Positions 4,829-51,093 of a stretch of DNA of 53,333 nucleotides are shown here, in pieces (within the stretch, counting starts at the first letter, position 1; every line of letters starts with the position of its first letter). The DNA is from Phycisphaerales bacterium (GTDB lineage: Bacteria; Planctomycetota; Phycisphaerae; UBA1845; UTPLA1). The DNA lies in the NCBI GenBank assembly GCA_022360095.1, contig JAKSDK010000795.1, positions 1-53,333 on the forward strand. Direction: 5' to 3'. The position numbers and the translations under genes are program-made. The notes under the pieces are model-generated. The model was not told where the DNA came from. It saw nothing but the letters and a program-made list of their open reading frames with translations, and ran no database searches.

Positions 4829-5102
4829 CTCTTTCTCCTTCGTTTCACTTTCCTTAGAAATGCACCGCATTGTCCAATTCTTTTTTGGTCCATCATCATG
4901 TGAATCCACTTGTGAACATGCCGACCCGATGAATACGGTTTTGATTGTCGTCGCGGAGTTCCGACCCGGATATAGACCAGAATAGACAATATAAGAGAAG
5001 AAATGCAAACACATTTTTTCTTGGATGTGCCATGCAGTGTGGCACACTTAGAGAAAAAACTTACAGAAATGATATTTTGATGTGGCGCGCGGACTTTGCG
5101 TT

Positions 5103-11540: not shown

Positions 11541-11698
11541 ATGCCTTATATCGGCAAATTGCGGGCTTTGGCGACGCAGAACCGGCTCTGAAACGGCGAG
11601 AATTGACTCTGAAGATTCCGAACTTATGATCCCCTGATGTCGGCAGCCCTGCCAATCTATGATCCGGGAACTTTCGATATGGATTAAGGAACGAAAAG

Positions 11699-14078: not shown

Positions 14079-14999
14079 ATGAATTCGTTGAGCGAACCGG
14101 CTCCAATTCATATGCCGGTCCTGGCAGAGCAGGTTGTCGAGCATTTTTCGGGCGACCGGCTGAGCATTGTCGTGGACTGCACCCTTGGCCTGGGGGGGCA
14201 TTCCAGGCTTTTGTTGGAACGACATCCGCAAATGAGACTCATCGGCCTGGACATGGACGATCAGAACCTGTCGCATGCGCGGGAAATTCTGGCGGATCAT
14301 GCAGGCCGGATTCGATTGGTTCGGGCAGATTTTGCCGATCTGGATAGCGTTCTGGCCGATCTCGAAGTCCGCGGGGTCGACGCAATCCTTGCCGATCTCG
14401 GGGTCAGCAGCAATCAAATCGCGGATCCGGATCGAGGCCTGAGTTTTGATTTGGACGGGCCTTTGGACATGCGGCTCGATCGTCGTCGGAAGACGACGGC
14501 GGCTGACCTGGTGAACACTTTGTCCGAAGGCGAACTGTCGGACCTACTTTACTTTCAGAGTCAGGAGCGACACAGCCGAAAGATTGCTAGACGAATCTGT
14601 CAGGTTCGCCGACAAGGCCGTATCAACAGCACTGTGGCGTTGGCCCGGCTGGTGGCGTCGGCGGTCGGTGAGAACCCGGACTCGCATCGCGGGCGAATTC
14701 ATCCGGCAACCCGGACGTTCATGGCACTACGCCGGTCGGTCAACCGGGAAACGGAGTCGTTGCAGCGGCTTTTGGGTTTGGTGCCCGGGCTTCTCCGTGA
14801 AGAGGGTCGCGTGGCGATCATCAGCTTCCATAGTGGAGAAGATTCGCTGGTCAAGAAGGACTTTCGCGGGCGTTCTCGTGAAGGCATCTACCGTATTTTG
14901 ACGAAAAAACCAATTGTCGCGGATGAATCGGAACGGCTGGCGAATCCTCGCAGCCGCTCCGCCAAAATGCGGGTCGCCGAACGCATGTCGGGGCCTTGA
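14079..14999 (+). CDS. rsmH: 16S rRNA (cytosine1402-N4)-methyltransferase RsmH (MraW).
   Basis: VDCTLGLGGHS SAM motif, DLGVSS, ISFHSGED. SD AGGAGG upstream. First gene of the dcw cluster. Confidence 0.9.
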   Translation: MNSLSEPAPIHMPVLAEQVVEHFSGDRLSIVVDCTLGLGGHSRLLLERHPQMRLIGLDMDDQNLSHAREILADHAGRIRLVRADFADLDSVLADLEVRGVDAILADLGVSSNQIADPDRGLSFDLDGPLDMRLDRRRKTTAADLVNTLSEGELSDLLYFQSQERHSRKIARRICQVRRQGRINSTVALARLVASAVGENPDSHRGRIHPATRTFMALRRSVNRETESLQRLLGLVPGLLREEGRVAIISFHSGEDSLVKKDFRGRSREGIYRILTKKPIVADESERLANPRSRSAKMRVAERMSGP

Positions 15000-15049
15000 G
15001 AGTTCTTTAGTTTGTGTTAACATAGCAGTCGCACACGGAGGTGCTTCAA

Positions 15050-16198
15050 GTGACCAAGGAAACCAAAATCGGTCTGGTGGTGGGGCTCGCGTTTATCATT
15101 CTCTTCGCCATCATCCTTTCTGAAAAAGGGGCCAACACGGGCAGCAAGGTGCCCTCCCATTTAACAGTGGTGGATTCCGGTGAGTCTCCGACAACCGGTG
15201 CTGAGAAGCCGTTTCATAACGCCGGGCGGGTTGCGGTGGAAGAGTCGTTGCCGGACCCCATGGAGAACGACACGACGACACCCACGAGCATTGTGATGCT
15301 CGAGGAGCCGGTCGGTCAGCCGATTCCGGGTGAGGACGAGCCGATCGATCCGTTGCCGGATGCGGTGGTCAACGGGTTGAATATTCCTCTGATTGAATCT
15401 GAAATCCCGGTCAACGCCCCGAGTACGCCTGAGACGGATTCGATGTCTTTGAGAGAGGCGCTGACGGTGGCCTTGAACGCGCCGCCATCGGATGAAGGCG
15501 CTCTGGTGATCGACGATGAGTTTCCGATCACGCCGGAGATGTCACGTGCGAGCCTTCTGGACCGGACGGCGGCGGAACAAAAACCGAAGTCTTCGATGAA
15601 GATCATCGCCGTCCACAAGGTCCGGTCGGGCGAGAGCCTAGGCAAGATTGCGGCCAAGCACTACGGTCGATCGACGCCTTCGCGAATCGCCGCGATCTTT
15701 GATGCCAATCGGGATCGTTTGAGTTCGATTCATAGCGTTCGAGCCGGCTCCAAGCTGAACATCCCGAAGCTTGACGCGGAGCAGGACATCGCGTTTGAAC
15801 CCGTGACTCACTTCGCCCCGGCCGAAATTGTTTCGCACACGAGGCCGACGCGGGATTCATCGGTTCGGATTCCAATTCCTGTCGACGACCGGCTAACGAG
15901 ATCAATCCCGTCGAATGCGGCGCCCTTTGCCTCGGCGCCCGATACGACCAGAGCCAGTCGGGCTCCCGTGAACTTTAAATGGTACAAAGTCCGCGACCGT
16001 GACACGTTGAGCCGCATCGCCAAGCGGGAACTCGGCAATGAAAAGCTCTTCCTCGACATCTACAAGCTCAACAAGGACATCATCACCAATAAGCATAAGA
16101 TCAAGCCCGGTATGAAGATTCGCCTGCCTATTCAAGTGAGTTCCGCTCCTCCGATGGCCACGGTGTTGTCGGCTCTGGGCGAGCCTTCGGAACCGTGA
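15050..16198 (+). CDS. Membrane-anchored protein with two C-terminal LysM (peptidoglycan-binding) domains, inserted between rsmH and ftsL.
   Basis: TM IGLVVGLAFIILFAIIL. LysM 1: HKVRSGESLGKIAAKHYG...SKLNIP. LysM 2: YKVRDRDTLSRIAKRELG...GMKIRLP. GGAGGTG sits 6 nt before GTG 15050. The ORF track starts at 15041. Confidence 0.6.
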   Translation: MTKETKIGLVVGLAFIILFAIILSEKGANTGSKVPSHLTVVDSGESPTTGAEKPFHNAGRVAVEESLPDPMENDTTTPTSIVMLEEPVGQPIPGEDEPIDPLPDAVVNGLNIPLIESEIPVNAPSTPETDSMSLREALTVALNAPPSDEGALVIDDEFPITPEMSRASLLDRTAAEQKPKSSMKIIAVHKVRSGESLGKIAAKHYGRSTPSRIAAIFDANRDRLSSIHSVRAGSKLNIPKLDAEQDIAFEPVTHFAPAEIVSHTRPTRDSSVRIPIPVDDRLTRSIPSNAAPFASAPDTTRASRAPVNFKWYKVRDRDTLSRIAKRELGNEKLFLDIYKLNKDIITNKHKIKPGMKIRLPIQVSSAPPMATVLSALGEPSEP

Positions 16199-16208
16199 GA
16201 CGCATGAT

Positions 16209-16463
16209 ATGACGACGTTCCGAGCTCTTCTGGTTCTTTTTATGATGGTGACGGTGGGTGTTGTCATCGTCGTGATTCGTCAGGAATCCGCCAAGGCGGC
16301 GAATCGCATTCAGGGGCTTCATCACCAAAAGATCACGCTGGAGCAGAGCCTCTGGACGCGCGAACTTGAATTGGCCAGGCTACGTGGCCCTGAGGCCATA
16401 CGACACCGTGCAGATGCGCTCGGATTTGAGGTTGTCCCTCCGGCTGCGAATCGGGACCCGTAG
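16209..16463 (+). CDS. ftsL: FtsL-like cell-division protein: small bitopic protein with one TM helix and a coiled coil.
   Basis: 84 aa. TM LLVLFMMVTVGVVIVVI then a heptad-like segment. Positioned directly before ftsI as in canonical dcw clusters. Confidence 0.5.
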   Translation: MTTFRALLVLFMMVTVGVVIVVIRQESAKAANRIQGLHHQKITLEQSLWTRELELARLRGPEAIRHRADALGFEVVPPAANRDP

Positions 16464-16547
16464 TGGGGTTGGTCCACCCCGGCAAACACTTGTCGTGCCA
16501 CAGGGCGTTGTCATCAAGAGCCGTCCTGATCACGACTGACTCAAGGA

Positions 16548-18308
16548 ATGGATGCCTTGCGGTCGCGCTCTTCCAATTTTGCGGCACACGCTCTCATTGG
16601 CACCGTCATGGTGGCTTTGCTCGTGCTGGTCGGCCGTCTCGTTTACATCAACACCTACCATGGGCCTCGCCTGATCGCCAAGGCTCATCGCCAGCAGCGT
16701 TCCCATGTGCCGCTTCAGCCGCGCCGAGGTTTCATCGTCGATGGTCGTGGCCGGATCATTGCCGGCACGATGCCTCGAAAAAGTGTTTTCGCCGATCCCA
16801 AAGTGATCCCGAACAAGGAGGCCGCCGCGCTTAAGCTTTCGGAAGTGCTTCAAATCGACCCCGGGGAAATCGTCCCTGATCTCCTTGCCGCCGGTGAGCA
16901 TCGTTTCTTCGTCATCCGACGCGGCGTCAGCGAAGAGGAGGCGGAACGCATTAAGCAGGCCGGCATCTACGGGCTCGGCGTTTTCACGGAGCCCTATCGC
17001 ACCTATCCCATGAACAGTCTTGCGGCCAGTTTGATCGGTTTCGTCTCACCGGACGGAGTCGGCGTCAGCGGCTTGGAGCATCAATGCGACTCCTGGCTGC
17101 GTGGCGAGAACGGCGCAAAAACGATTATTCGCGACGCCGGTCGCAAGGCTTTTTGGCTGGCCGACGGGGGTTATCGTCCGGCCAGGGACGGTTTTCATGT
17201 GGTGTTGACCATTGATCTGGAGGTCCAGGCAAAGGTCGAGCGCGAACTCGAGGCCACCGTTCAGAAGTATCAGGCCGAAAGTGCCGTCGCCATCGTGATG
17301 CACCCCATGACGGGCGCAATCTTGGCGATGGCCAACTATCCGGGCTACGATCCGAACAACTATCGCGACTTTAGCACGGTCCGTTACCGGAATCGGACCA
17401 TCACGGACCCGTATGAGCCGGGCAGCACCTTTAAGCCGTTTATCGCCGCGGCGGCGCTTGCCGAAGGCGTCGTGCGGCTAGGCGAGGTTTTCGATTGTGA
17501 GCGAGGCGCCTGGCAGGACGGCCCCCGGACTCTCCGTGATCATCATCCTCATGATTACCTCTCCTTCGAGGAGATTCTGATCAAGTCCAGCAACATCGGG
17601 ATGGGCAAGATCGGAAAACGGCTCGGCAACGAGCGCCTCCATCATTATGTGAAGGCGTTCGGCTTTGGAGAGAAGACTGGAATCGACCTTCAGGCGGAAG
17701 ATCCCGGCATCGTACGACGGTTGTCTCGTTGGAACACCTACTCGACGACCAGCATTCCCATGGGCCAGGAAATCGGGGTGACTCCAATGCAGTTGGCCAG
17801 AGCGTTTTGCACGTTTGCGAACGGCGGAAAGCTGGTCAAGCCTTATGTGATTCGTGCCGTGATGGATGCGGAAGGCAGGGTCATCAACGATTTCACGCCG
17901 TCGCCTCCGGAGCAGCAGGTGCTTCCGGAAGAGATCGTCGCGGTCATGAAGGACAAGATTCTCTGCGCGGTTGTGAACCAGGGCGGGGCCAGATCCGCCC
18001 GGCTCGCCAACTATCAGGTGTTCGGGAAAACCGGAACGGCCCAAATTGCCAAAAAAGGGGGTGGGGGCTATGAACCGAATGCATACGTCAGTTCGTTCGT
18101 GGCCGCAGCCCCAGCCGGTGATCCAGAATTGGTGGCTTTTGTCGCGGTTCGACGACCGAAGAAAGCTCTGGGCTATTACGGAGGAAAGGTCGCGGCGCCG
18201 GCCGTGCGAGGCATCCTAGGTCATGCCCTGGCCTATTTGCAGGTGACGCCGGAACCCATGAGTCAAGAGGCACTCACCGCGCTCTCGGAGGATGTTGACG
18301 CGGATTAA
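16548..18308 (+). CDS. ftsI: Peptidoglycan D,D-transpeptidase FtsI (PBP3).
   Basis: N-terminal TM. SxxK (STFKPF), SxN (KSSNIG), KTG (GKTGTA). SD AAGGAA upstream. Confidence 0.9.
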   Translation: MDALRSRSSNFAAHALIGTVMVALLVLVGRLVYINTYHGPRLIAKAHRQQRSHVPLQPRRGFIVDGRGRIIAGTMPRKSVFADPKVIPNKEAAALKLSEVLQIDPGEIVPDLLAAGEHRFFVIRRGVSEEEAERIKQAGIYGLGVFTEPYRTYPMNSLAASLIGFVSPDGVGVSGLEHQCDSWLRGENGAKTIIRDAGRKAFWLADGGYRPARDGFHVVLTIDLEVQAKVERELEATVQKYQAESAVAIVMHPMTGAILAMANYPGYDPNNYRDFSTVRYRNRTITDPYEPGSTFKPFIAAAALAEGVVRLGEVFDCERGAWQDGPRTLRDHHPHDYLSFEEILIKSSNIGMGKIGKRLGNERLHHYVKAFGFGEKTGIDLQAEDPGIVRRLSRWNTYSTTSIPMGQEIGVTPMQLARAFCTFANGGKLVKPYVIRAVMDAEGRVINDFTPSPPEQQVLPEEIVAVMKDKILCAVVNQGGARSARLANYQVFGKTGTAQIAKKGGGGYEPNAYVSSFVAAAPAGDPELVAFVAVRRPKKALGYYGGKVAAPAVRGILGHALAYLQVTPEPMSQEALTALSEDVDAD

Positions 18309-18448
18309 TCGGGCGGTGGGGCGGTTGTGAATTTCCGAACAAATCACAGGGGGCGAACGTAACGAAACCGTTTGAGCGAACCAGCGAGGCCAAAAGGTCG
18401 CAGTTTGGCTCACGGGCGAGTTCGCCTTCACGTTACAATGCGGCCGAC

Positions 18449-19996
18449 ATGACAACGACAAACGTTTCCCAACGGACAAATCAAGAATGCAGCCCGACTC
18501 GATTGCGCGAACTTTTGCGTCGGAGCCTCGACCTGGAATTCGGATCTGACCCGAAGTCGGACTTTGATATCACCGACATCTGCTGCGACTCTCGACAAGT
18601 GAAACCGGGTGCTTTGTTCGTTGCCGTCACGGGGACCTCGGTTGACGGCGCATCGTTCGCGTCCGACGCGGCCCGACGCGGGGCCGTTGCCATCGTAGCA
18701 GATCGTGAACTGGGACAACCGCTCACCATTCCGGTCGTGAAGGTTCCTAATGCGCGGGATGCCGTTTCACGTCTGGCGGCGGTGTTTTTTGGTTTGGACG
18801 TTATTCAAGCGAAGGGCGAATTGACCGTGATCGGGATCACCGGCACGAACGGCAAGAGCACGACGGCCTACATGCTGCGAGAAATCCTTCGATTTGCGGG
18901 TCGTCCGACCGCCATGCTCGGCACGATTGAATATGATCTGCTCGCTGAGAAGCTCACCGCACAGCTCACCACGCCTGATCCGGTCACCCTGGTCAGGCAC
19001 CTCGTTCAGGCACACGAAGCCGGGGCGAGGTTTGCGGTAATGGAGGTTTCGTCTCATAGTCTTGATCAACGTCGCGTTGCCGGCATCAAGTTCTCCACCG
19101 CGATCTTTACCAATCTGACTCAGGATCATTTGGATTACCACGGAACGTTTGAGGATTATTCGCGAGCAAAGCGCCGGCTGTTCGACGGGTTGTCGAGCCG
19201 TGCGGTCGCGGTCGTTAACGCTGATGAAGCTGCAACGGATTCAATTCTGAAGAATTGTGCGGCGAGGGTCATTCGCTATGGGATGGCCCCGTTGTCGGAC
19301 GTCCGGGCCCATCTTGTTTCCGAAACCAAAGCCGGCAGCCGCTTCATTCTAAATTATGAAGATCGACGAACTGAAATGGAAACAGCGCTCGTTGGCCGCC
19401 ATAACATCTCCAACGCGCTGGCGGCCGTCGCTGCCGCGTTGGAACTCGGGTTGGGTCTTGACACGATAAGGCAAGGGTTGGCTGAACTGAGCGATGTCCC
19501 CGGTCGTTTGCAGCGAGTTGACACCGGGGGGCTCGGTTTTGACGTGTTTGTCGACTATGCACACACCGATGACGCATTGCGAAACGTGCTACGAGCCCTG
19601 CGGCCGTTGACTTCGGGAAAATTGTTGTGCGTATTCGGTTGTGGTGGTGACCGTGATCGCACGAAGCGACCTTTGATGGCTCGTGCCGTTGCTGACGGCG
19701 CGGATGCCTTCGTGATGACAAGCGACAATCCTCGAACCGAGGACCCGATGGCCATCATCACGGACATTGAAAACGGGCTGACTTCTGAGAGCCGCCAGCG
19801 TGGTGTGACGGAGGTGGACCGCAGGAAAGCGATCACCAGGGCGATCGAGCGCGTGGCCCCCGGCGATACGCTGCTGATCGCCGGCAAGGGCCATGAGGAC
19901 TACCAGATTCTCGGCAATGAAAAGGTCCATTTCGACGATGTGGAGATTGCGAGTGGTGTCATTGAAAAGATGAGGGGGATTCGCAAGGAGTCATGA
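18449..19996 (+). CDS. murE: UDP-N-acetylmuramoyl-L-alanyl-D-glutamate--2,6-diaminopimelate ligase MurE.
   Basis: GITGTNGKSTT P-loop, DYAHTDDAL, DNPR motif (MTSDNPRTEDP). Confidence 0.9.
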   Translation: MTTTNVSQRTNQECSPTRLRELLRRSLDLEFGSDPKSDFDITDICCDSRQVKPGALFVAVTGTSVDGASFASDAARRGAVAIVADRELGQPLTIPVVKVPNARDAVSRLAAVFFGLDVIQAKGELTVIGITGTNGKSTTAYMLREILRFAGRPTAMLGTIEYDLLAEKLTAQLTTPDPVTLVRHLVQAHEAGARFAVMEVSSHSLDQRRVAGIKFSTAIFTNLTQDHLDYHGTFEDYSRAKRRLFDGLSSRAVAVVNADEAATDSILKNCAARVIRYGMAPLSDVRAHLVSETKAGSRFILNYEDRRTEMETALVGRHNISNALAAVAAALELGLGLDTIRQGLAELSDVPGRLQRVDTGGLGFDVFVDYAHTDDALRNVLRALRPLTSGKLLCVFGCGGDRDRTKRPLMARAVADGADAFVMTSDNPRTEDPMAIITDIENGLTSESRQRGVTEVDRRKAITRAIERVAPGDTLLIAGKGHEDYQILGNEKVHFDDVEIASGVIEKMRGIRKES

Positions 19997-21474
19997 GACC
20001 GTTAACGTTACAGGAAACAGCTTCGGCTCTGGGCGGTCGCGCCTACGGAGAGATCGCGACGAGGCGCGTAACAAATGTGTCTACAGACTCCCGTAGGGTT
20101 CAGGATGGAACACTCTTCGTCGCCATCAAAGGCGAGCGGTTTGACGGCCACGATTTCGTCGAGGCGGCTCTGGAGCGCGGCGCGACGGCCGCCGTGGTTC
20201 ATGACGCCGCAAAAATGGGCGAGGCTTATCGAAATAGCGGCCGGCTGATCGAGGTCAAAGACACGATCGTTGCATTGGGTAAGCTTGCCGGCTGGTACCG
20301 TCGTCAATTCGCTGCCCAGGTGGTTGCTGTCATCGGGAGTAACGGCAAGACGACGGTCAAGGACCTGATCGCATCCGTTTTGGGTTCGCGCCTTTCAGGC
20401 CGGGCTGCGCCGGCGAGCTACAACAACGCGATCGGAGTGCCGTTGACGCTTTTGTCGGTTGAGCCGTCCGATCAGTTTATTGTTGTGGAGATCGGAACGA
20501 ACTATCCGGGCGAGGTGACGTCCCTCGCTCGAATCGCGCGTCCTGACATGGCGGTCGTCACGAGCATCGGTGAGGAGCATTTGGCTGCCTTGGGCGATTT
20601 GAACGGCGTCGCGCGGGAGGAATTTTCATTCCTCTCCAATATGCAGGATCGTGCCTTTGCGGCTATCAGTGACCAAGCCGGTCAATACGCACCACGTTAC
20701 TTGCAGAATCAAATCAAGTATGCCTCGACGCGTCGTCGAGACGATCAAAACTATTCGTTGCTGATTTACGGCTTCAGCGAAAGTGCTGATCTGCGAGCGG
20801 TCTCTGTCAAACGAACCAAAAACGGTCAACATTTTCGGGTCAACGATCGTTTCGAATACTCGTTGCCGCTGCTGGGCCGCCATAACATTCTGAATGCCCT
20901 GGCGGCGATCGCCATCGGCACACGGTTTCGACTCAGTCATGAGGACATCGCAGCGGCGCTGGCGAAGGTTCAAGGGCCGCCGATGCGATTGCAGCGGACG
21001 CAACTCGGTTCCATGACGGTGATCAACGACGCTTACAATGCGAATCCCGGTAGCATGCGTGCCGCGTTCTCGGCGATGGACGATCTTTCCGGGGTCGGGC
21101 GGAAAGTCTTCATCCTCGGCGACATGCGTGAACTGGGCAGCCAGGCTACGCGCTGTCATCTGGCGGTCGGTGAAGAGGCCGGTCGTTCGACGGCACAAGT
21201 CATCATCGCCGTCGGTGCCTATGCGAGGATTGTGGCGGACGGTGCGACGATCACAGCGGGGACAAGCAAGCGGATCTACACATGTCCTTCGATTGAGGCC
21301 CTTGTTGAAAAGCTTCCGGCATGGCTGGAGCCGGGGGATGCGGTGTTGCTCAAAGCATCCCGAGGTGTGCAGCTTGAGCGGATTATTCCGGCGATGGAGG
21401 AGAGCCGTGCGCTGCGCATTCATCATGGATCGAGGAACGGAGGACGGAAAGTCCGGAATCAGGGGATCGGCTGA
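19993..21474 (+). CDS. murF: UDP-N-acetylmuramoyl-tripeptide--D-alanyl-D-alanine ligase MurF.
   Basis: GSNGKTT P-loop, ILGDMRELG. ATGA start/stop overlap with murE. Confidence 0.9.
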   Translation: MRPLTLQETASALGGRAYGEIATRRVTNVSTDSRRVQDGTLFVAIKGERFDGHDFVEAALERGATAAVVHDAAKMGEAYRNSGRLIEVKDTIVALGKLAGWYRRQFAAQVVAVIGSNGKTTVKDLIASVLGSRLSGRAAPASYNNAIGVPLTLLSVEPSDQFIVVEIGTNYPGEVTSLARIARPDMAVVTSIGEEHLAALGDLNGVAREEFSFLSNMQDRAFAAISDQAGQYAPRYLQNQIKYASTRRRDDQNYSLLIYGFSESADLRAVSVKRTKNGQHFRVNDRFEYSLPLLGRHNILNALAAIAIGTRFRLSHEDIAAALAKVQGPPMRLQRTQLGSMTVINDAYNANPGSMRAAFSAMDDLSGVGRKVFILGDMRELGSQATRCHLAVGEEAGRSTAQVIIAVGAYARIVADGATITAGTSKRIYTCPSIEALVEKLPAWLEPGDAVLLKASRGVQLERIIPAMEESRALRIHHGSRNGGRKVRNQGIG

Positions 21475-21477
21475 GAC

Positions 21478-22605
21478 GTGATTTACCACCTGCTTAAGTA
21501 TCTGATTGCAGGCCATTATGGCTACGAGAACCCCTTGTTTCGCGGCACGATTGCCATTCTCATCGCTTTCCTGGTGGTTTGGGGACTGGGTCCGCTGATG
21601 ATTCGCTGGCTGGTCCGAAAGAAATGCGGCGATGTCCCGGACTTCGACCACGCCGAGCTTAACGAACTCACGAATCACAAGAAAAATGTCCCAACGATGG
21701 GCGGGCTGTTGATCCTCTTCGGAGTAACGACGGCTGTCTTATTATTGGCGGACTTGACCGTCTATTACATCCATCTCGCGTTTTTCTGTATGGTCTGGCT
21801 GGGCGCGCTGGGTTTCTGGGACGATTGGTTCAAGCTCATGGCCAAGGGAAAAAGCAGCCGCGACGGGCTCAAGTTTTATCAAAAGCTTCTTTTTCAGATC
21901 GGTCTGGGTGTGGTTTTGGGCATGTTCATCTATCAGCGGGGACAGGCCACGTTTCAGGGTGAAGAGAACGAACTCTTCCGTGCGCTCAGTCTCCCTTTTT
22001 TCAAGGGCGATCCGGCCCAACCCATTCTCCTGTCCTGGGTCACCTTCAGTTTGATCACGATCGTCGTCGTCGCAGGAACGTCCAATGCCGTGAACCTGAC
22101 CGACGGCATGGATGGTTTGGCAAGTGGGTGTGTGGCCATGTGCTGCCTGGTATTCATGTTGTTGGCCTTCGCCGTAGGGGACGAGGACGTCGCTGCCTAT
22201 TTGCAGTACACCCATATTCCCAGGGCGGGGGAATTGTCCGTGTTATGCGGAGCCATGCTGGGGGCCTCGCTGGGATTTCTCTGGTACAACAGCAATCCGG
22301 CACAAGTGTTCATGGGAGACACGGGCTCTCTGCCGTTGGGGGGGCTCATCGGTTTTGTGGCGATCGTGATCCGCCAGGAGCTGATGCTCTTTATCGTGGG
22401 CGGGGTTTTCGTGATCGAGGCACTCTCCGTCATGTTGCAGGTGGGTTTTTTCAAACTGACGGGGGGCAAACGCCTTTTCCTGATTGCCCCGATTCACCAT
22501 CATTTTCACCTCAAAGGCTGGAAGGAAAACCAGGTTGTCGTGCGATTCTGGCTGCTTTCGGCGTTGTTCGCGGTGATTGCGCTCGCAACCACGAAACTCC
22601 GTTAG
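21478..22605 (+). CDS. mraY: Phospho-N-acetylmuramoyl-pentapeptide transferase MraY.
   Basis: NLTDGMDGLA motif, 10 predicted TM helices, GTG start 4 nt after the murF stop. Confidence 0.9.
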   Translation: MIYHLLKYLIAGHYGYENPLFRGTIAILIAFLVVWGLGPLMIRWLVRKKCGDVPDFDHAELNELTNHKKNVPTMGGLLILFGVTTAVLLLADLTVYYIHLAFFCMVWLGALGFWDDWFKLMAKGKSSRDGLKFYQKLLFQIGLGVVLGMFIYQRGQATFQGEENELFRALSLPFFKGDPAQPILLSWVTFSLITIVVVAGTSNAVNLTDGMDGLASGCVAMCCLVFMLLAFAVGDEDVAAYLQYTHIPRAGELSVLCGAMLGASLGFLWYNSNPAQVFMGDTGSLPLGGLIGFVAIVIRQELMLFIVGGVFVIEALSVMLQVGFFKLTGGKRLFLIAPIHHHFHLKGWKENQVVVRFWLLSALFAVIALATTKLR

Positions 22606-22635
22606 AGCGGTTCGCCGATACTGACAATAAGTGGA

Positions 22636-23961: not shown

Positions 23962-23982
23962 CTTCTCGATATCGAGGGTTTC

Positions 23983-25101
23983 ATGGCCGAAGATAAACCT
24001 TGGTTTGTCATCGCCGGCGGCGGCACGGGGGGGCATCTTTATCCTGGATTGGCCGTGGCTCAGGCGTTGCTCGCCCTCCAACCCGAGTTCGATGTCACGA
24101 TCTTCGGCACGCCGCGTCCAATCGATGAGCAACTGACCGGGCCCCGCGGTTATGAATTGGTCAAGCAGGAGGTCTGCGCTTTTCCGAGGAAACCTTGGCA
24201 TATTTTTCGGTTCTTGTCGGCCTGGCATCGCTCGGTCAAGTATGCGAAGGAACGGTTCAAGACGCGGCGTCCCGCGGTCGTGCTCGGACTCGGAGGTTAT
24301 GCTGCAGGTCCGCCTGTCATTGCGGCCGCGAAACTCAAAGTGCCGACGGCCTTGTTCAACCCGGATGCGATGCCGGGGTTGGCCAATCGGTATTTGGCCT
24401 CGAAGGTCGATCGCATTTTCATTCAATGGCGTGAGACCGCTGATCATTTCAATCGGCGCCCCAACATCAAATGCACGGGTTGCCCGATTCGCCTGGATTT
24501 CATCCGCGTCGATCGTGAGGAGGCGATTCGCGCGTTGAAACTTAATCCGAGAAAGAAGACGCTCCTGATTACCGGCGCTTCGCAAGGAGCCTGGTCCATC
24601 AACGCGGCCGTGATGGAATTGGTTGATTTCTGGAAGGAAAACGATGCCTGGCAGATTCTCCATCTGACGGGAACGGCCGATCTGGCGATGTGTCGCGAGA
24701 AGTACAAAAAGGCCGGTGTTCCCGCCCGGACTCTGGCCTTTACGGAACACATGCCGTATTGCATGGCCGCGGCGGACCTTGTCATCTCACGCGCGGGGGC
24801 CTCGACCCTTGCGGAAATTATCGCGTTGGGTCTGCCGTCGGTCCTGATGCCGTATCCGTTCGATCGGAAAAAGCACCAACTCGCCAATGCGAAGCTGCTT
24901 GCGGACTGCAATGCGGCCGAGTTGCTGGAAGATGCGAACGACGTCGAGAAGAACGCGAAGAATCTGCGTGAGTTGCTCACGGGACTGATGAACTCTGAGG
25001 CTCGCCGTCGGCACCTGAGCGAGGTGGCCGGGGCGATGGGGCGCCACGACGCGGCTCAGGCGATTGCCGAGGAATTGTGGGAAATGGGACGCACGGGTTA
25101 G
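23983..25101 (+). CDS. murG: UDP-GlcNAc:undecaprenyl-PP-MurNAc-pentapeptide GlcNAc transferase MurG.
   Basis: GGGTGGHLYPGLAVAQAL N-terminal motif. GT28 architecture. Confidence 0.9.
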   Translation: MAEDKPWFVIAGGGTGGHLYPGLAVAQALLALQPEFDVTIFGTPRPIDEQLTGPRGYELVKQEVCAFPRKPWHIFRFLSAWHRSVKYAKERFKTRRPAVVLGLGGYAAGPPVIAAAKLKVPTALFNPDAMPGLANRYLASKVDRIFIQWRETADHFNRRPNIKCTGCPIRLDFIRVDREEAIRALKLNPRKKTLLITGASQGAWSINAAVMELVDFWKENDAWQILHLTGTADLAMCREKYKKAGVPARTLAFTEHMPYCMAAADLVISRAGASTLAEIIALGLPSVLMPYPFDRKKHQLANAKLLADCNAAELLEDANDVEKNAKNLRELLTGLMNSEARRRHLSEVAGAMGRHDAAQAIAEELWEMGRTG

Positions 25102-25423
25102 GCTGGCGCCGGTTCCGGGTTCCCAGCTTTTTCCCCCTCAAGAAAATCGAAACTCCAACCCGATATGGTGACGGAGTCCATGAACATTCGCCCGGCACAT
25201 TTTGCGCTCTAACGCAAACGTGAAAAATCACAGCGATTCAGCCGTCCCCATAAAACGGCTCAGGGTGAACTTCTTGCGACGCGCTGGCGTATGCGTGTAG
25301 GATCGACTCTGCTAAGGACGGCACGGCCCTCCCGGGCTGTATGGCTGGCTCCAGCCGGCCAGGGGAATTTGCCCGGGGTGAGATGAGCTTAGGGCCGCGA
25401 CTTCACACGGAGGTGAACTCCCC

Positions 25424-26902
25424 ATGTCGCGAATCGTAACCCCTTCGGACACGGCTCTTCAATCCGATCTTTTTCGTCGCGACACGCGTACTTCAGGTCA
25501 TCCGCGTCAACAACATTGGAGCAGTCCCTACGCGGCGAGACGGATTCACCTGATCGGCATCGGCGGTTGCGGTATGACAAGCCTCGGCGGCGTGTTGCTT
25601 CGTTGCGGAGCGATCGTCAGCGGTTCGGACCGGGTCGAGTTCAATGCTCAAGGCCAGCTGGAAGAAATGGGCGCGGTCATTCGCATCGGCCAGGCCCCGA
25701 TCAACGTGTCTTCCGATTGTGAGCTGGTGGTCTATTCCGCCGCTGTCGGAGACGACAATCCGGAATTGCTCGAAGCCAGACGTCGGGGTGTGAAATGCCT
25801 CAAATATGCCGAGATGCTCGGTCAGGTGATGCAGTTGCGAACCGGCATCGCGATCGCCGGCACGCATGGCAAAAGCACGACCACGGCCATGCTGGCTTAT
25901 ATTTTGCGTCAAGCCAAAGCCGACCCGACGTTCGTGGTCGGCGCCGGCGTTCGGCAACTGGAGGGCAGTTCCGGGGTCGGCGACGGGCCTCACTTTCTGG
26001 TCGAGGCATGCGAATATGCACAATCATTTTTGAACCTCTCGCCTTTCTATTCCGCGATTCTGAACATCGAAGAAGACCACCTCGATTGTTACAACGGCAT
26101 CGAGGCCATCATGGAGGCGTTTCGTTCGTTCATTTCGCTGGTTCCGCCGGAGGGAACGATTCTGGCCAACGGTGAAGATCGTAACGTGGTCAAGGCCGTC
26201 GAGAATGCACGAGCATCGGTGGAAACTTTCGGCGAGTCGGAGGGCATGACGTGGCGTGCCCTCAATGTTCGTCACGACCATGGTTGTTACTCATTTGATG
26301 TGCTGTACAACGATGCCTTATTCCTCCGGGCCGATCTGAAGAGTCTCCCGGGCAGGCACCAGGTTTTCAATGCGCTGGTCGCGACGGCGCTGGCCAAGCA
26401 TTGTGGGATCTCCGCAGAGGCCGTCGCGGAGGCGCTTTCGGAGTTTGCCGGCGCCGACCGTCGCCTGACCCAGCGCGGGGATGTGGGTGGCGTCATCCTG
26501 CTCGACGACTACGGGCATCATCCCACTGAGATTCAAGTGACGCTTCGAGCGGTTCGAGAGCACTATCCCAATCGGCGGCTTTGGGTCATCTTTCAGCCGC
26601 ATCAGCATTCGCGTACCAGGTTCTTGTTGAATGATTTCGCTCGGAGTTTCGGGTTGGCGGATCATTTGCTGGTTCCGGACATTTACTTTGTGCGCGATTC
26701 CGCGTCGGAGCGGGCCGCTGTTTGCAGCAGCCACCTCGTGGAACGGGTCCGGGCCAATGGTGGGGATGCGCTCTATTTACCCAAGCATGAACAGATTGTG
26801 GAACATATGGTGACCCACGCCGCCGCCGGCGACGTGATCCTGACCATGGGCGCCGGTGACGTGTGGAAGATTGCCGATGAACTTGTTCGACGACTTGCCT
26901 GA
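25424..26902 (+). CDS. murC: UDP-N-acetylmuramate--L-alanine ligase MurC.
   Basis: IAGTHGKSTTTAMLA P-loop, LLDDYGHHPTEI. SD GGAGGTG upstream. Confidence 0.9.
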   Translation: MSRIVTPSDTALQSDLFRRDTRTSGHPRQQHWSSPYAARRIHLIGIGGCGMTSLGGVLLRCGAIVSGSDRVEFNAQGQLEEMGAVIRIGQAPINVSSDCELVVYSAAVGDDNPELLEARRRGVKCLKYAEMLGQVMQLRTGIAIAGTHGKSTTTAMLAYILRQAKADPTFVVGAGVRQLEGSSGVGDGPHFLVEACEYAQSFLNLSPFYSAILNIEEDHLDCYNGIEAIMEAFRSFISLVPPEGTILANGEDRNVVKAVENARASVETFGESEGMTWRALNVRHDHGCYSFDVLYNDALFLRADLKSLPGRHQVFNALVATALAKHCGISAEAVAEALSEFAGADRRLTQRGDVGGVILLDDYGHHPTEIQVTLRAVREHYPNRRLWVIFQPHQHSRTRFLLNDFARSFGLADHLLVPDIYFVRDSASERAAVCSSHLVERVRANGGDALYLPKHEQIVEHMVTHAAAGDVILTMGAGDVWKIADELVRRLA

Positions 26903-27761
26903 ACCTGCTTGCCGCCGGAATGTCCCTCTCGCCCCGCTGACGTGGTTCAAGCTGGGCGGACCGGCGGAGTATCTTGTCGAGCCGCAATCTGAGCAACAGC
27001 TGGCGACCGTCCTTCGTCGATGCCACGAGACCGGCACCCTCGTTCACATTCTCGGACTCGGAGCCAATGTCCTCGTCCCGGACGAAGGCGTTTCAGGCGT
27101 CGTTGTTCGTCTTAATTCTCCCGCGTTTACGGAGGTCACTTTCGAAGAGGGGACTTTGAATGTCGGCGGCGGCATGGATATGACCAAGCTGGTCCGCACC
27201 TGCGTGCGTCAAGGGATGGCCGGATTGGAACAACTGGCAGGCATTCCAGGTACGGTCGGCGGGGGAATCTGCATGAACTGCGGCGGCCGTTACGGCGAAA
27301 TCGCGACGGCCATTCTTCGTGTTCGGGTGATGAGACCGGACGGGAAGATCGAGGAGCGCAGGCAGGAGGAATTGAGTTTCGATTACCGGCGGTGCAACCT
27401 TGACGACGGTTTCGTCGTCAGCGCCGCATTTCAACTTCACGAGACTGATCCCGAACAGCTTCGGGAGCGCTTCCACGAAATCTGGACGTACAAACAGAAT
27501 TCGCAGCCCGCCATGGGGGGGCAAAGCGTCGGCTGTATTTTTCGAAATCCCAATGGTCAATCGGCGGGGCAATTGATCGATCTCGCCGGTTTGAAGGGGT
27601 TTCGTGTCGGTAGTGCCTACATTTCAGAACGTCATGCGAACTTCGCCATGTCGGACAAAGGAGGGCGGTCCGCAGATGTTCTTAACCTGATTCATACAGT
27701 TGCAGATCGTGTCATCGAACGTTTCGGGGTTCGTCTGGAACCTGAAGTGAAGATTTGGTAG
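26877..27761 (+). CDS. murB: UDP-N-acetylenolpyruvoylglucosamine reductase MurB.
   Basis: FKLGGPAEYLV FAD-binding start. The ORF track begins at 26856; ATG 26877 is more likely. It overlaps the murC 3' end. Confidence 0.85.
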   Translation: MNLFDDLPEPACRRNVPLAPLTWFKLGGPAEYLVEPQSEQQLATVLRRCHETGTLVHILGLGANVLVPDEGVSGVVVRLNSPAFTEVTFEEGTLNVGGGMDMTKLVRTCVRQGMAGLEQLAGIPGTVGGGICMNCGGRYGEIATAILRVRVMRPDGKIEERRQEELSFDYRRCNLDDGFVVSAAFQLHETDPEQLRERFHEIWTYKQNSQPAMGGQSVGCIFRNPNGQSAGQLIDLAGLKGFRVGSAYISERHANFAMSDKGGRSADVLNLIHTVADRVIERFGVRLEPEVKIW

Positions 27762-27774
27762 ATCCACCGGCGAG

Positions 27775-28776
27775 GTGCAGCGCTCGCCGGACGACTGGAG
27801 CCTTGCCGTGAGTGTCACGCATTCGAAAACGAAGCCGAGAGAACATGACGCTACGTCGACAGACCGGAAGTTGGCGATCACCGTTTTGGCCGGAGGGCCC
27901 AGTGGAGAGCGCGAAGTCAGTCTTGAAAGCGGTCAGGCGGTCGTGGCAGCGCTTGAAACTCTGGGCCATGAGGTTCAACTGGAAGACATCGCGCCGAATG
28001 ATCTGACCGCGTTGGCTCGGGAGGTCGATTGTGTGTTCATTGCTCTGCACGGCACATTCGGCGAGGACGGTCAGGTCCAATCCATTCTCGAAGAGCGCGG
28101 CCTATGCTATTGCGGCTCCGGGCCAAGCGCATGTTCATTGGCCATGAACAAAGCGGAAGCCAAGGCAAAATTTGCCGATCTTGGCTTGAAGACACCGCGT
28201 TTCGCGGTCGTGACTGCGGAAACGACCGGCAAGATCACGTCGGCAGACTGGCCTGTGCCGGTGGTCGTCAAGCCGATTCAGGAAGGTAGCAGTCTGGCGT
28301 GTCATATCGTGCGAGACGTCGCACAGTTTCAACCGGCCGTTGACGCCGTCGTTCGCGAATACGGCCGATGCATGATCGAGGAATACGTCCCCGGCAGAGA
28401 AATCACGGTCAGCATCCTGGGAGATACGGCGTTGCCGCCGATTGAGATTCGGACTCGGCGTGAATTCTACGACTACGAGGCCAAGTATGTCGATGAAGAT
28501 ACGGAGTTCGTGTTCGACATCGACTTGCCGCAGAAACTGCTGGAACAAATCTCCGAGATGAGCCTGGCAGCCCATCGCGGCTTGGGCTGCCGTGATTTCT
28601 CCCGAGTGGACTGGCGGGTGGATGACAAGCGATTAAGTCCCGGCCTGCTGGAAGTGAACGTGATTCCCGGTCTGACGTCCCATTCATTGTTTCCCAAGGC
28701 CGCTCAACACGCAGGCTGGAGCCTGCCGATGATGTATCAACATCTCGTGGAACTGGCGATGACACGAGGCCTCTGA
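27775..28776 (+). CDS. ddl: D-alanine--D-alanine ligase Ddl.
   Basis: ATP-grasp (IALHGTFGEDGQVQSILEERGLCYCGSG, EVNVIPGLT). The true start is probably downstream of the listed one. Confidence 0.85.
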   Translation: MQRSPDDWSLAVSVTHSKTKPREHDATSTDRKLAITVLAGGPSGEREVSLESGQAVVAALETLGHEVQLEDIAPNDLTALAREVDCVFIALHGTFGEDGQVQSILEERGLCYCGSGPSACSLAMNKAEAKAKFADLGLKTPRFAVVTAETTGKITSADWPVPVVVKPIQEGSSLACHIVRDVAQFQPAVDAVVREYGRCMIEEYVPGREITVSILGDTALPPIEIRTRREFYDYEAKYVDEDTEFVFDIDLPQKLLEQISEMSLAAHRGLGCRDFSRVDWRVDDKRLSPGLLEVNVIPGLTSHSLFPKAAQHAGWSLPMMYQHLVELAMTRGL

Positions 28777-28811
28777 ATGAAACTTGGCTGAATCTGAGCG
28801 ACCTTCCTACG

Positions 28812-29759
28812 TTGGCAAAGAAAAAAACCAAAAGCAACAAGAACATCCAACAGGATGCCGATGAACGACGACGCTGGTGGTCTCCGATGTCATGGTCGGT
28901 GAGCCCACGGCTCAAACGCAACCTGATCATGACCGGACTCGTGGCGGCGCTGGTCTCGGGGCTCTGTATCGGCTTGACGTCCTTGGAAAGCCATGTTCAC
29001 ACGATGCCGCGATACGCCGAAGTGTTGGCCCTCGAGTGGGACAACCTCCCGGACTGGTTGCGCTTGAGAGAGAATCGGCATATTCTGAAAACGCTCACTC
29101 GCAGGGTGAATCTCAAACGCAGCGACCATCGGCTCGACCCCCAACTTGCCGAACGGTTGGGCACGACGCTGCTGGACCCCGGTCTCGGTTGGGTCAAGTC
29201 GGTGAACCGTGTGATGGTTCGCCCCGACGGGCGCGTGTCCATGCGTTGCCAGTTTCGCCGTCCCGCCGCCTGGATTCAGTACGATCGTTATTGCTATCTC
29301 GTCGATGCGGAAAGCGTTCGACTTCCGGGCCGTTACGATTTCAACGAGTGCATTAACAGCTCGCTTCTGATGATCTCGGGTGTTGACAGCAGACCACCTG
29401 CCGTCGGCCAGGTCTGGTCCGGAGCGGATCTGAACTCCGGTCTTAAATTGGCATCCCTAATCTCGGAACGGCCTTTTCGTAACCAGGTGGATCGAATCAT
29501 CGTCGCCAACCACGACGGCCGAAAAGAGCGGAATCGGCCTCACATTGAGTTGGCCACGGATCGTCGCGGGTCGCGTATCTGGTGGGGTCGTCCGCCGGAG
29601 GAGGAATACGGCATCGAAATCACGGCCAATCAGAAGCTCACGCTGATGGAGACGCTGTTTCGCCAATGGGGGCGGATCGATCTGAATCGAGCCTACGTCG
29701 ATGTTCGTACACACCCCGATTCCGTGGTTCTTCCCGCACAGATGAGTTCCGGAACATAA
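28812..29759 (+). CDS. ftsQ: FtsQ/DivIB-like cell-division protein: bitopic, with a periplasmic POTRA-like region.
   Basis: Basic N-terminus, single TM (LIMTGLVAALVSGLCIGL), ~250-aa periplasmic part. It is the last gene of the dcw cluster, immediately after ddl. Confidence 0.5.
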   Translation: MAKKKTKSNKNIQQDADERRRWWSPMSWSVSPRLKRNLIMTGLVAALVSGLCIGLTSLESHVHTMPRYAEVLALEWDNLPDWLRLRENRHILKTLTRRVNLKRSDHRLDPQLAERLGTTLLDPGLGWVKSVNRVMVRPDGRVSMRCQFRRPAAWIQYDRYCYLVDAESVRLPGRYDFNECINSSLLMISGVDSRPPAVGQVWSGADLNSGLKLASLISERPFRNQVDRIIVANHDGRKERNRPHIELATDRRGSRIWWGRPPEEEYGIEITANQKLTLMETLFRQWGRIDLNRAYVDVRTHPDSVVLPAQMSSGT

Positions 29760-29829
29760 TTGGGACTGGTCCAGGCGTTACAATGAGGCTATGCTTACGT
29801 TGTAGTGGCCTAGGGTACATCGTTCGATT

Positions 29830-30687
29830 TTGGTTGACCGGGATAACTGGATGTTGGCCGCCAATACAAGTCAAGAGGCCTGGCTCGAGACCTTCCGGCA
29901 ACTCTTGCATCATCATCTTGAGCCGCTTCAGAGCACGCCTGCGGTAAATGTCGGGAGCCTTGTGGCCGTTGCGGTCGGATTGTTTCTGGTTTTTCGAGGC
30001 GGTAAGTTCGAGCGATTTCTGGTTTGTGCATTTGCGCTCGTGCTCGGCGGTTGGCTGGGGCATTACCTCTCCGTTTTGATTGACGTGCCTGGACCCATTA
30101 CGATCGCGATTTCAGGCATTGTCTTTTCGGTCGTCGCGTACAAGAGCTACCGCGCCTGGCTCGCGGCCGGTTCCGTCATCGTGCTGTTCGGGCTCGCGGT
30201 GATCTTCCAGCTCGGTCGTGGAGACCTTGAACGGTATCTGCCGACCGCGTCGAACCAGAAAGTCGTCGACGACAAGGTGACGTTGCCCAGCAAAGAGGTT
30301 CAATTGAAGAACCTGTATCCCGAATGGAAAGAGCAGATGAGCAACGTCGGTGAAAAGGCCATGGCCCAGCTGAGGGAATTCAAGATCTCAGGGTGGTTGA
30401 TTCCCGTGGCCGCCGCCATCGTCGGCGGGTTATTGGCCTATTGGGCGCTTCGTGCCTTTGCCATTGTCTGGATCGGTTTTCTCGGTTCCGGTATGGCGGT
30501 GCTGGGCGGTTCCACCGTGCTTTGCGCAAATTGGCCTGATTTTCGGGATTCGCTGTTCACCAATCCGCAGTATCCGGCGGCGATCATCGTCGGACTCTGG
30601 CTCCTTGGTCTTATATGGCAGGCTAAAGAAGCCCGTTTCCCCAAAAAAACCGCGCGTGAATCTGACGGCGACGCCTCCAAATCGTAG
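29830..30687 (+). CDS. Polytopic membrane protein of unknown function, in the position where ftsA/ftsZ normally sit.
   Basis: 285 aa, at least 6 hydrophobic segments, central soluble loop. Confidence 0.5.
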   Translation: MVDRDNWMLAANTSQEAWLETFRQLLHHHLEPLQSTPAVNVGSLVAVAVGLFLVFRGGKFERFLVCAFALVLGGWLGHYLSVLIDVPGPITIAISGIVFSVVAYKSYRAWLAAGSVIVLFGLAVIFQLGRGDLERYLPTASNQKVVDDKVTLPSKEVQLKNLYPEWKEQMSNVGEKAMAQLREFKISGWLIPVAAAIVGGLLAYWALRAFAIVWIGFLGSGMAVLGGSTVLCANWPDFRDSLFTNPQYPAAIIVGLWLLGLIWQAKEARFPKKTARESDGDASKS

Positions 30688-30756
30688 ATTCATCAAAACG
30701 AGTCTGAATGTTGTTTATCCACCCTGTACGGATGGCGGCCGTCGGAGTGGAACAAA

Positions 30757-31386
30757 ATGCAGGCTGTTTTTGCGAGACTTGGACAGCTGGACCCGGACAT
30801 CGCGGTCCTTCTGGTCATTGCAGGTTTGATCTACGGTCTTTTCGGCTGGCGCATCGTACGCTACTTGGCCTTCACGGACGCGCTTGTGATGGGCATCATC
30901 CTGGCGCTTGGTGTCTTTGAGTACGACAAGCGGGCCGCTTATCTCCTGCCCGCGTTTCCGGTCGCGACGGTGTTGGTCATTGGTCTGCCCTGGCTGGCCT
31001 GGCGATTTGCCAGATGGTCGGTGGCCATCATGTGCGGCGTGGCGGGATTTCTGGTCGTCCAGATTGTGCTGATGCAATATGAAACGCCGCTGGCGGTTCG
31101 ACTTTCGCTGGGCTTTCTCGGTGCCGGCGCGGCCATGGCCTTGAAAATGACGTTGACCCGTGAAACAGCAATCGTGGTGACCGCTTTGCACGGGGGATGG
31201 CTGTTCATGGGCGCTTTGGCGATCATGGCCGTTCATCCCGATAGCTTCGCGGGTCGCTTGTTCAACTCGCTCTATGAAACTCACGCGCTGCTTATTCCGA
31301 TTGTTGCGACGGGTCTATCGGCCATCCTGATTGCCGTCCAATGGGCGGATATGGAACGCGACATGAACCCGATCTATAACGGCTGA
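30757..31386 (+). CDS. Polytopic membrane protein of unknown function.
   Basis: 209 aa, 6 hydrophobic segments. Confidence 0.5.
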   Translation: MQAVFARLGQLDPDIAVLLVIAGLIYGLFGWRIVRYLAFTDALVMGIILALGVFEYDKRAAYLLPAFPVATVLVIGLPWLAWRFARWSVAIMCGVAGFLVVQIVLMQYETPLAVRLSLGFLGAGAAMALKMTLTRETAIVVTALHGGWLFMGALAIMAVHPDSFAGRLFNSLYETHALLIPIVATGLSAILIAVQWADMERDMNPIYNG

Positions 31387-43670: not shown

Positions 43671-43705
43671 TTTGCTCTCTGTTTGAAGGGCTGCCGGTGG
43701 CCAAG

Positions 43706-45501: not shown

Positions 45502-45523
45502 CTTCGTTCGTTATTCAAACGTT

Positions 45524-51056: not shown

Positions 51057-51093
51057 TGATTTTCCTTGTTTATCAAAGGACTTGGTAGATATG

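Follow-up and report, generated by a model that had tools for sequence, protein, structure and literature searches.

A two-unit dcw cluster in Phycisphaerae, with a conserved LysM membrane protein as a candidate part of FtsZ-independent division

Introduction

How is fission organised in a bacterium whose division and cell wall (dcw) gene cluster has neither ftsZ nor ftsA, and do the genes that the cluster holds in addition offer a clue? Binary fission in Phycisphaerae takes place without FtsZ, and the protein that drives the process is still being sought (PMC6952346). The question is raised here by a dcw cluster on contig JAKSDK010000795.1 of a metagenome-assembled genome (MAG) of a Phycisphaerales bacterium (GTDB Planctomycetota; Phycisphaerae; UBA1845; UTPLA1; assembly GCA_022360095.1). 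"The window" denotes the whole of the stretch analysed, 53,333 nt, on which an earlier note, made from the letters, had pointed out the cluster. The collinear plus-strand order rsmH-ftsL-ftsI-murE-murF-mraY-ftsW-murG-murC-ddl-ftsQ identifies it as dcw, and the locus is a real and well-conserved dcw cluster of Phycisphaerae. The best overall explanation, which we consider probable, is that this is the two-unit dcw cluster of FtsZ-less Phycisphaerae and that a LysM protein encoded between rsmH and ftsL, as proposed here, is an FtsN-like part of the divisome. What is new is a conserved set of accessory genes; as to the absences, those of ftsZ and ftsA are known biology, and murD has probably been relocated.

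The LysM protein between rsmH and ftsL

The strongest element of the accessory set is the gene for a bitopic protein of 382 aa (15050-16198, plus strand, GTG start), a good candidate for a component of the FtsZ-independent division machinery. The first of its LysM domains (LysM-1, residues 192-242) scores 47.8 bits with PF01476 (E 1.4e-12), well over the family's cut-off of 20.9, which places the protein in the LysM family, and the second (LysM-2, residues 300-364) is apparent from the NCBIfam scan and alignment.

A genome scan with the window MurG alone returned no relative, and there is no close sequenced relative sharing 8-mers; comparison was therefore by alignment. The genomic contexts of relatives (cited below by L numbers) were fetched through homologues of the LysM protein and of TM1, a multi-pass membrane protein encoded near the 3′ end of the cluster, and were annotated by tblastn with the window proteins. 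The LysM protein has 161 full-length homologues, 33-70% identical to it. For synteny a set of 36 loci was used: the window, three MAG genomes (L028-L030) and 32 metagenome contigs. In all 36 the LysM gene is directly 3′ of rsmH and 5′ of ftsL/ftsI, and the FtsL-like gene is kept 3′ of it in relatives. In distant contigs that bear the gene, rsmH is 42-52% and ftsI 35-38% identical to that of the window, and the LysM proteins of Phycisphaeraceae-level relatives have 25-35% identity outside the N-terminus (NCBI assigns L060 to Phycisphaeraceae and L063 to Phycisphaerae). Because the position is kept in 36 of 36 loci, distant Phycisphaeraceae-level contigs included, the LysM gene is a class-wide, integral dcw member. 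The earlier note had proposed the LysM protein as an extra gene product and a candidate lineage-specific divisome component; the synteny comparison supports the gene as a conserved member, kept inside the cluster throughout the set.

The N-terminus, M-TKETKIGLLVGLAFIILFAIILSEKG, consists of a six-residue cytoplasmic tail and one transmembrane (TM) helix, and these 27 residues are nearly invariant. (The N-in topology follows from the single N-terminal hydrophobic helix and from LysM having to be periplasmic.) Among the 36 sequences, residues T2, E4, T5, K6, G8, L9, V11, G12, I16 and I21 are invariant, while codon counts show two to four synonymous codons for each of them. The constraint is therefore on the peptide and not on DNA or RNA: purifying selection acts on the first 27 residues at the level of the protein. 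Next comes a periplasmic linker of about 160 aa, low in complexity, compositionally biased and variable in length, in which the motifs PL..AGRLPV and EEPVGQ.IP..EPI.PLP.SVV..LN stand out. The C-terminal part has, in alignment, the order LysM-1, FEP motif, RIPIP motif, LysM-2. It is the TM helix and the tail, not the LysM domains, that are most strongly conserved.

This build recalls that of FtsN and other SPOR-domain divisome proteins of Proteobacteria. In those, too, a short N-terminus in the cytoplasm leads into one TM helix, and a long, flexible linker with short conserved motifs crosses the periplasm to a C-terminal domain that binds peptidoglycan (PG). The differences are several. There are two LysM domains instead of SPOR (LysM is the only Pfam match) and no sequence similarity to FtsN; the cytoplasmic tail is only six residues long, with no FtsA to bind; and the LysM gene is inside the dcw cluster, whereas ftsN is outside.

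On the proposed mechanism the LysM protein would be a lineage-specific divisome component that acts like an FtsN/SPOR protein. Within the membrane, its invariant tail and TM helix would dock to the conserved core of FtsQ/FtsL or FtsW/FtsI; the linker, flexible and periplasmic, bears the short conserved motifs; and the two LysM domains would bind PG. In a cell without an FtsZ/FtsA ring, this would link new septal wall back to the synthase. A bolder form of the proposal, which we consider somewhat improbable, is that the protein is a class-wide FtsN-like organiser or activator of FtsZ-independent fission, which might recruit or activate FtsW/FtsI through its TM helix and sense nascent septal PG through LysM.

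A cluster in two conserved units

The cluster is made up of two conserved units and reaches further 5′ than the extent first described. Unit A comprises a promoter-like box, genes for a family 2 glycosyltransferase (GT2) and a BshC-like ligase, then rsmH, the LysM gene, ftsL, ftsI, murE, murF, mraY, ftsW and murG. Unit B, which starts at promoter-like boxes in a gap of 322 bp between murG and murC (25102-25423), comprises murC, murB, ddl, a divergent ftsQ and the genes for two membrane proteins, TM1 and TM2. That this gap is the unit boundary is concluded from three observations. The run murC-murB-ddl-ftsQ-like-TM1 is found by itself, preceded by unrelated genes, in five loci (L006, L017, L018, L023, L027); an opposite-strand methylase directly follows murG in L028; and in GCA_003576905.1 the two units are on different contigs (L030 and L027).

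Gene identities were taken from the open reading frame (ORF) listing and Pfam/NCBIfam scans, and every call in the order first reported from rsmH to dnaE holds, the gap having its length adjusted to 322 bp. All genes of the cluster are on the plus strand. The first of the canonical genes, rsmH (mraW; 14079-14999), for the 16S rRNA m4C1402 methyltransferase, matches PF01795 (1.5e-88) and TIGR00006 (274 bits, above cut-off). The FtsL-like protein of 84 aa (16209-16463) falls short of the cut-offs of the two models that it matches, NF053549 FtsL_Actino (2.4e-7; 30.6 bits, cut-off 55) and NF049847 (4.6e-3). Its location 5′ of ftsI and its TM helix and coiled coil fit FtsL; in alignment with E. coli FtsL it shows a C-terminal LG..VPP motif. 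The class B penicillin-binding transpeptidase gene ftsI (16548-18308) is recognised by PF00905 (4e-77), PF03717 (2.6e-18) and the NCBIfam SpoVD, PBP2 and FtsI models. After it come murE (18449-19996; NF001126 5.3e-165, above cut-off), murF (19993-21474; TIGR01143 7.3e-113, above cut-off), mraY (21478-22605; PF00953 1.6e-31), ftsW (22636-23961; PF01098 1.1e-86, its best match being TIGR02614 ftsW with 308 bits against 246 for rodA) and murG (23983-25101; PF03033, PF04101). Beyond the gap are murC (25424-26902; TIGR01082 7.1e-126, above cut-off), murB (26856-27761; PF02873, PF01565), ddl (27775-28776; PF07478, PF01820), the FtsQ-like gene (28812-29759), TM1 (29851-30687) and TM2 (30757-31386). 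The 3′ boundary is marked by dnaE (31404-34940, minus strand; PF07733, PF02811, PF17657), which is convergent with the cluster.

Set beside the canonical dcw cluster, with which it has in common the order and orientation of rsmH, ftsL, ftsI, murE, murF, mraY, ftsW, murG, murC, ddl and ftsQ, the window cluster is without mraZ, murD, ftsA and ftsZ and has murB between murC and ddl. It differs further in having the LysM gene between rsmH and ftsL, the GT2 and BshC-like pair at its head and two DUF4203-like membrane proteins at its tail, and in consisting of two conserved units with a gap between them that bears promoter-like boxes.

Promoter-like boxes were retained only where conserved across species. 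The probable start of unit A is a sigma-70-like box, TTGACT-N16-TATGAT (11603-11630, plus strand), with 10 of 12 matches, and its position and sequence are kept in L029 and L030. In the gap, an alignment of nine loci brings out three elements on the plus strand. The first is a promoter-like box, CTCAAGAAA-N~18-CCCGATAT (TCAAG...CCCGATAT), at 25137-25166; the second is sigma-70-like, TTGCGA-N18-TAGGAT, at 25274-25303, and probably serves unit B as its promoter; the third is an invariant ribosome-binding region, CACACGGAGGTG, at 25404-25415, 8 nt 5′ of the murC ATG. Both gap boxes and CACACGGAGGTG are found also in L006, a locus in which murC and murG are apart. On the simplest reading, the gap provides an internal promoter region followed by a leader of some 120 nt. 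[The leader (25304-25403, about 100-120 nt, between the TAGGAT box and the murC ribosome-binding site) varies in length and sequence among relatives; in the window it has a GC-rich palindrome, GGCTGGCTCCAGCCGGCC, at about 25344-25361.] Rfam at gathering thresholds matched nothing in the window, and no known riboswitch or leader was found in the 322-bp gap.

Genes that are missing

The absences were sought with Pfam over the 53 kb and by tblastn with E. coli proteins, the targets being the window and related loci of about 0.46 Mb in total. For mraZ, murD, ftsA and ftsZ there is no Pfam match anywhere in the 53-kb window, and E. coli MraZ, MurD, FtsA and FtsZ found no counterpart in either of the tblastn targets, MurD giving weak cross-matches to murC and murE only.

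All Planctomycetota are without ftsZ and ftsB, and most are without ftsA; in Phycisphaerae, COG profiling of reference genomes gives ftsZ, ftsB, ftsA and alr as the only dcw losses, the set being otherwise near-complete (PMC12283558, PMC12673574). That ftsZ and ftsA are not there is phylum-wide biology already on record, and no finding in itself. That a cluster ending without ftsA/ftsZ fits an FtsZ-less lineage had been suggested from the letters of the window, and it agrees with the Phycisphaerae source of the MAG and the published phylum-wide loss. The published dcw surveys of planctomycetes and of the Planctomycetes-Verrucomicrobia-Chlamydiae (PVC) group (Pilhofer 2008 as cited; Rivas-Marin 2016, 2020, 2023; Henriques 2025; FEMS Rev 2025) report FtsZ, FtsB and FtsA as absent and the PG-synthesis and fts genes as kept in Phycisphaerae, which the window fits exactly. 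Whereas those surveys score known COGs by presence or absence, the window adds accessory genes. In the papers searched on planctomycetal dcw, neither the LysM gene nor the head with GT2 and BshC-like genes, the tail with TM1 and TM2 or a relocation of murD was found to be mentioned. Literature searches gave nothing on LysM within the dcw of Planctomycetes, and no mention of LysM was found in the P. limnophila essential-gene paper.

The case of murD is different in kind. Its canonical site, between mraY and ftsW, is here a junction of 30 bp (22606-22635) with no murD remnant, and the earlier note was right that the gene is skipped there. In at least 15 independent assemblies mraY directly abuts ftsW (L004, L009, L010, L015, L024 and L025; L033, L036, L038, L039, L040, L044, L053, L055 and L057). 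Since this is so, and since in the surveys the mur genes of Phycisphaerae reference genomes are present, with murD among them and not among the losses, murD would be encoded elsewhere: it has most probably been relocated rather than lost, and may have been excised from this junction across the class. [The former murD site is also a recurrent insertion point. In L029 (17531-18238) a PIN-domain gene and a 68-aa gene are inserted on the opposite strand, and in L030 (17910-19045) a GNAT acetyltransferase and a DUF1801 gene, again on the opposite strand.] The junction has the look of an old breakpoint, at which murD was taken out.

As for mraZ, its absence is correct for the window and does not hold as a general trait. 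In five more distant loci (L053, L055, L057, L059 and L061) an mraZ homologue is 5′ of rsmH, in place of the pair of genes that heads the window cluster. These distant relatives have the LysM gene as well as mraZ; the absence of mraZ is therefore a trait of a sub-clade, in which it would have been lost or replaced, and the LysM insertion is the older event.

The operon head: a glycosyltransferase and a BshC-like ligase

Two genes that formed no part of the cluster as first described stand at its 5′ end. The first (11699-12448, plus strand) encodes a GT2 glycosyltransferase that resembles polyprenyl-phosphate sugar synthases (PpgS, DPM1, ArnC type); it matches PF00535 (2e-29), and its best NCBIfam match, NF058614 PpgS (3.4e-29), is below cut-off. 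The second (12482-14074, plus strand) encodes a protein of 530 aa and ends 4 bp 5′ of rsmH, in the place of mraZ. The pair heads the operon in the window, in L028-L030 and in about 17 of L032-L056, with a divergent TPR gene upstream of it.

Homologues of the 530-aa protein are of 500-550 aa and have no Pfam match. The protein itself has no Pfam or NCBIfam match even at E<=10, and PDB sequence and profile searches, which included 4WBD, gave nothing meaningful. Its likeness to BshC came from fold comparison only: the modelled structure has a Rossmann fold of the class I aminoacyl-tRNA-synthetase type and, C-terminally, a coiled coil, and shows the features of the BshC fold, namely a Rossmann core, CP1/CP2 inserts and a coiled-coil dimerisation domain. 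Judged by this model it is a BshC-fold, class-I-synthetase-type ligase, and it is named BshC-like as its sequence does not place it in the family. Its invariant residues lie in the motifs GHQP..H.G.W.K, VDSD, HPIPDL, RPRAL, HGIGGAKYDQ and YNPQR. BshC (YllA), the putative bacillithiol cysteine ligase of Firmicutes (PDB 4WBD), is 9% identical to it; and while BshC goes with BshA (GT4) and BshB, the gene here is paired with a GT2. BshC activity itself has never been demonstrated in vitro (PMC4360819). In S. aureus, bshC is immediately upstream of mraZ-rsmH (PMC8572050), and so two phyla that are very far apart both have a gene of BshC type at the 5′ end of dcw (in Firmicutes as bshC then mraZ-rsmH).

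The FtsQ-like protein and the two membrane proteins after it

The protein of 315 aa encoded after ddl is probably a divergent FtsQ. In sequence, a basic tail at the N-terminus and a single TM helix are followed by a POTRA-like and a beta domain, and its family has 1397 representatives at E<=1e-3. The gene always follows ddl, and size and bitopic topology (about 250-330 aa after ddl) fit FtsQ/DivIB; the consensus PWV..V..V...G...V.C.FR.P.A.V....YLVD..GVRLP reads like a POTRA domain. The window protein has no match among Pfam (PF08478, PF03799), NCBIfam or PDB profiles. Sub-threshold matches to PF03799 were obtained with two of 15 orthologues (E 0.013) and one of ten distant homologues (0.0023), and hhalign against E. 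coli FtsQ gave a probability of 28% (E 6e-4), in register over residues 96-190, the POTRA and beta region. The earlier label "ftsQ-like" fits the position after ddl and the topology; its profile support is weak and below threshold.

TM1 (278 aa) is predicted to have about seven TM helices, a loop of about 55 aa between TM helices 4 and 5, and a basic C-terminal tail, QAKEARFPKK; TM2 (209 aa) has about six helices. In their multi-pass topology they resemble the family PF13886 (TM7S3/TMEM198-like, formerly DUF4203), all their scores being below its gathering threshold of 29.2 bits. For TM1, 15 of 37 members match it below threshold (best E 6.5e-5) and the window protein scores 14.4 bits, which leaves it outside the family; for TM2 it is the only Pfam match, again sub-threshold, in four of 13 members (best 5.7e-4). 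To our knowledge PF13886 itself is without a known bacterial function. BLASTP finds no similarity between TM1 and TM2, and hhalign only a weak one (probability 9.5%, E 0.0034). They may be remote, DUF4203-like paralogues, as the shared sub-threshold PF13886 matches suggest. The predicted model of TM1 resembles no solved structure. Upstream of TM1, alignment brings out a conserved promoter-like box of its own, CTGGTC-N18-TATGCT (29766-29795, plus strand), the consensus of its second element being GCTATCCT.

Alternative explanations

Could the odd gene content be an artefact of assembly or binning? The window does derive from a MAG, but the idea is scarcely credible and in effect already refuted, as order, junctions and extra genes are repeated in more than 50 independently assembled contigs (NCBI, ENA, JGI and Logan), some of them of 1-6 Mb. 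A second possibility, which bears on murD, is that this gene is truly missing and that its amino-acid-ligase step, or another step of stem-peptide synthesis, is carried out by a non-orthologous enzyme, for instance the BshC-like protein. No murD is present at any dcw locus examined, and an ATP-dependent ligase-fold protein is kept in the same operon. Class I synthetase-type enzymes, however, activate the carboxylate of the incoming amino acid, which is the opposite polarity to MurD chemistry. Relatives with mraZ in place of the BshC-like gene are likewise without a clustered murD, and murD is not among the Phycisphaerae losses in COG profiling (PMC12283558). A BshC-like substitute for MurD is quite unlikely, and relocation is the preferred account. 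For TM1 and TM2, which had been put forward as divisome candidates, matters are more evenly poised. Counted over 20 genome loci (L008-L027), TM1 is directly 3′ of the ftsQ-like gene in 12 (an arrangement shared by L004 and L006, both JGI contigs) and within 3 kb of it in two more. The candidacy keeps the point that TM1 is usually linked to ftsQ, the overall tally being 15 of 20 genomes with the two no more than 3 kb apart. The rival view is that the two are housekeeping DUF4203-like proteins, unrelated to division, that sit beside ftsQ through conserved gene order. In five of the 20 loci (L013, L014, L019, L020, L022) TM1 is unlinked from dcw, with an ABC transporter, PPDK and EngA among its neighbours, and a promoter-like -10 box of the GCTATCCT type precedes it even there (L013, L019, L020). 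Insertions separate it from the ftsQ-like gene in L016 (2655-4914; an IS200-type transposase and a phage tail collar domain gene) and L027 (7721-9607; a beta-propeller gene). Thirteen loci have TM2 after TM1 and seven lack it there, adjacency to dnaE is also kept in several, and no domain or fold links either protein to wall or division. Yet TM1 is with ftsQ and not dnaE in eight loci, against one with dnaE and not ftsQ, and it travels with unit B when this is detached from unit A. The housekeeping view is about an even call. A link of TM1/TM2 to division is suggestive at best, the case being much weaker than for the LysM protein; they would be at most accessory, often and not always co-located with ftsQ.

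The main rival to a division role for the LysM protein is that it is a general PG-binding envelope protein, a wall-membrane tether or hydrolase regulator, co-expressed with wall synthesis. LysM is, after all, a generic PG-binding module (PF01476); the weak NCBIfam likenesses of the protein are to LysM (YgaU), MltD, YneA and FimV, none of them core divisome, and JGI labels homologues "YgaU". Against such a role stand the strictly internal position of the gene, from rsmH to ftsL/ftsI, in all 36 loci across the class, and a TM helix and tail more conserved than the LysM domains, which points to a specific membrane partner rather than to wall binding alone. We take a general envelope role to be a serious alternative and somewhat improbable. 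Other points also weigh against the overall explanation. The case for a division role of the LysM protein is one of synteny, topology and conservation, and LysM domains are common in many envelope proteins that have no part in division. The assignment of FtsQ is sub-threshold. Beyond the loci compared, the genome-wide absence of ftsZ/ftsA and the location of murD are drawn from published surveys of cultured Phycisphaerae. TM1, besides its five unlinked copies, is confined to a narrower clade (92 homologues, all of at least 43% identity). The promoter-like boxes have cross-species conservation as their sole support, a consensus promoter/terminator scan of the region being not enriched over shuffles. 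With these points counted, the FtsN-like reading of the LysM protein within a two-unit cluster is still the one preferred.

Source of the locus and the rest of the window

The proteins of the window are identical to NCBI entries named "MAG: ... [Phycisphaerales bacterium]", with locus tags MI923_*. Phycisphaerae origin is supported by the NCBI source names of these identical proteins and of homologues, and all 20 genome loci are from uncultured Phycisphaerae/Planctomycetota MAGs. One further locus, L001, is the window sequence itself (100% identity). JGI enrichment metagenomes hold relatives of near-complete-genome size, L004 (3300001596, 5.94 Mb) and L039 (JGI12316J15309, 1.08 Mb).

Outside the cluster, dnaE is adjoined by an ORF of 374 aa (35011-36135, minus strand) with no Pfam or NCBIfam match and weak zinc-ribbon-like matches only; together with dnaE it recurs only in L001, identical to the window. 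A run of minus-strand genes at 41467-46897 encodes a type I phosphodiesterase/nucleotide pyrophosphatase, two xylose-isomerase-like TIM-barrel proteins, one of which has 630 aa and an N-terminal region without Pfam match, and a myo-inositol-1-phosphate synthase. The run may be a pathway for an inositol-derived metabolite. Other minus-strand ORFs without Pfam match are at 496-1992 (498 aa), which adjoins an RHS-repeat protein fragment (1851-2594), 3425-5047 (540 aa), 40597-41349 (250 aa) and 49884-51167 (427 aa).

Implications for division without FtsZ

Planctomycete division without FtsZ is an acknowledged question, and which protein drives it in Phycisphaerae is being asked in the literature (PMC6952346). 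The accessory set offers three candidates. One consists of the two DUF4203-like membrane proteins, whose genes are linked to ftsQ. Another is a BshC-fold ligase with a polyprenyl-phosphate GT2 at the mraZ site, which echoes the bshC-mraZ linkage of Firmicutes. Foremost is the class-wide LysM/TM protein in the dcw core, with its TM segment under extreme purifying selection. If its proposed role is true, the LysM protein would be a piece of the machinery that replaced the Z-ring.

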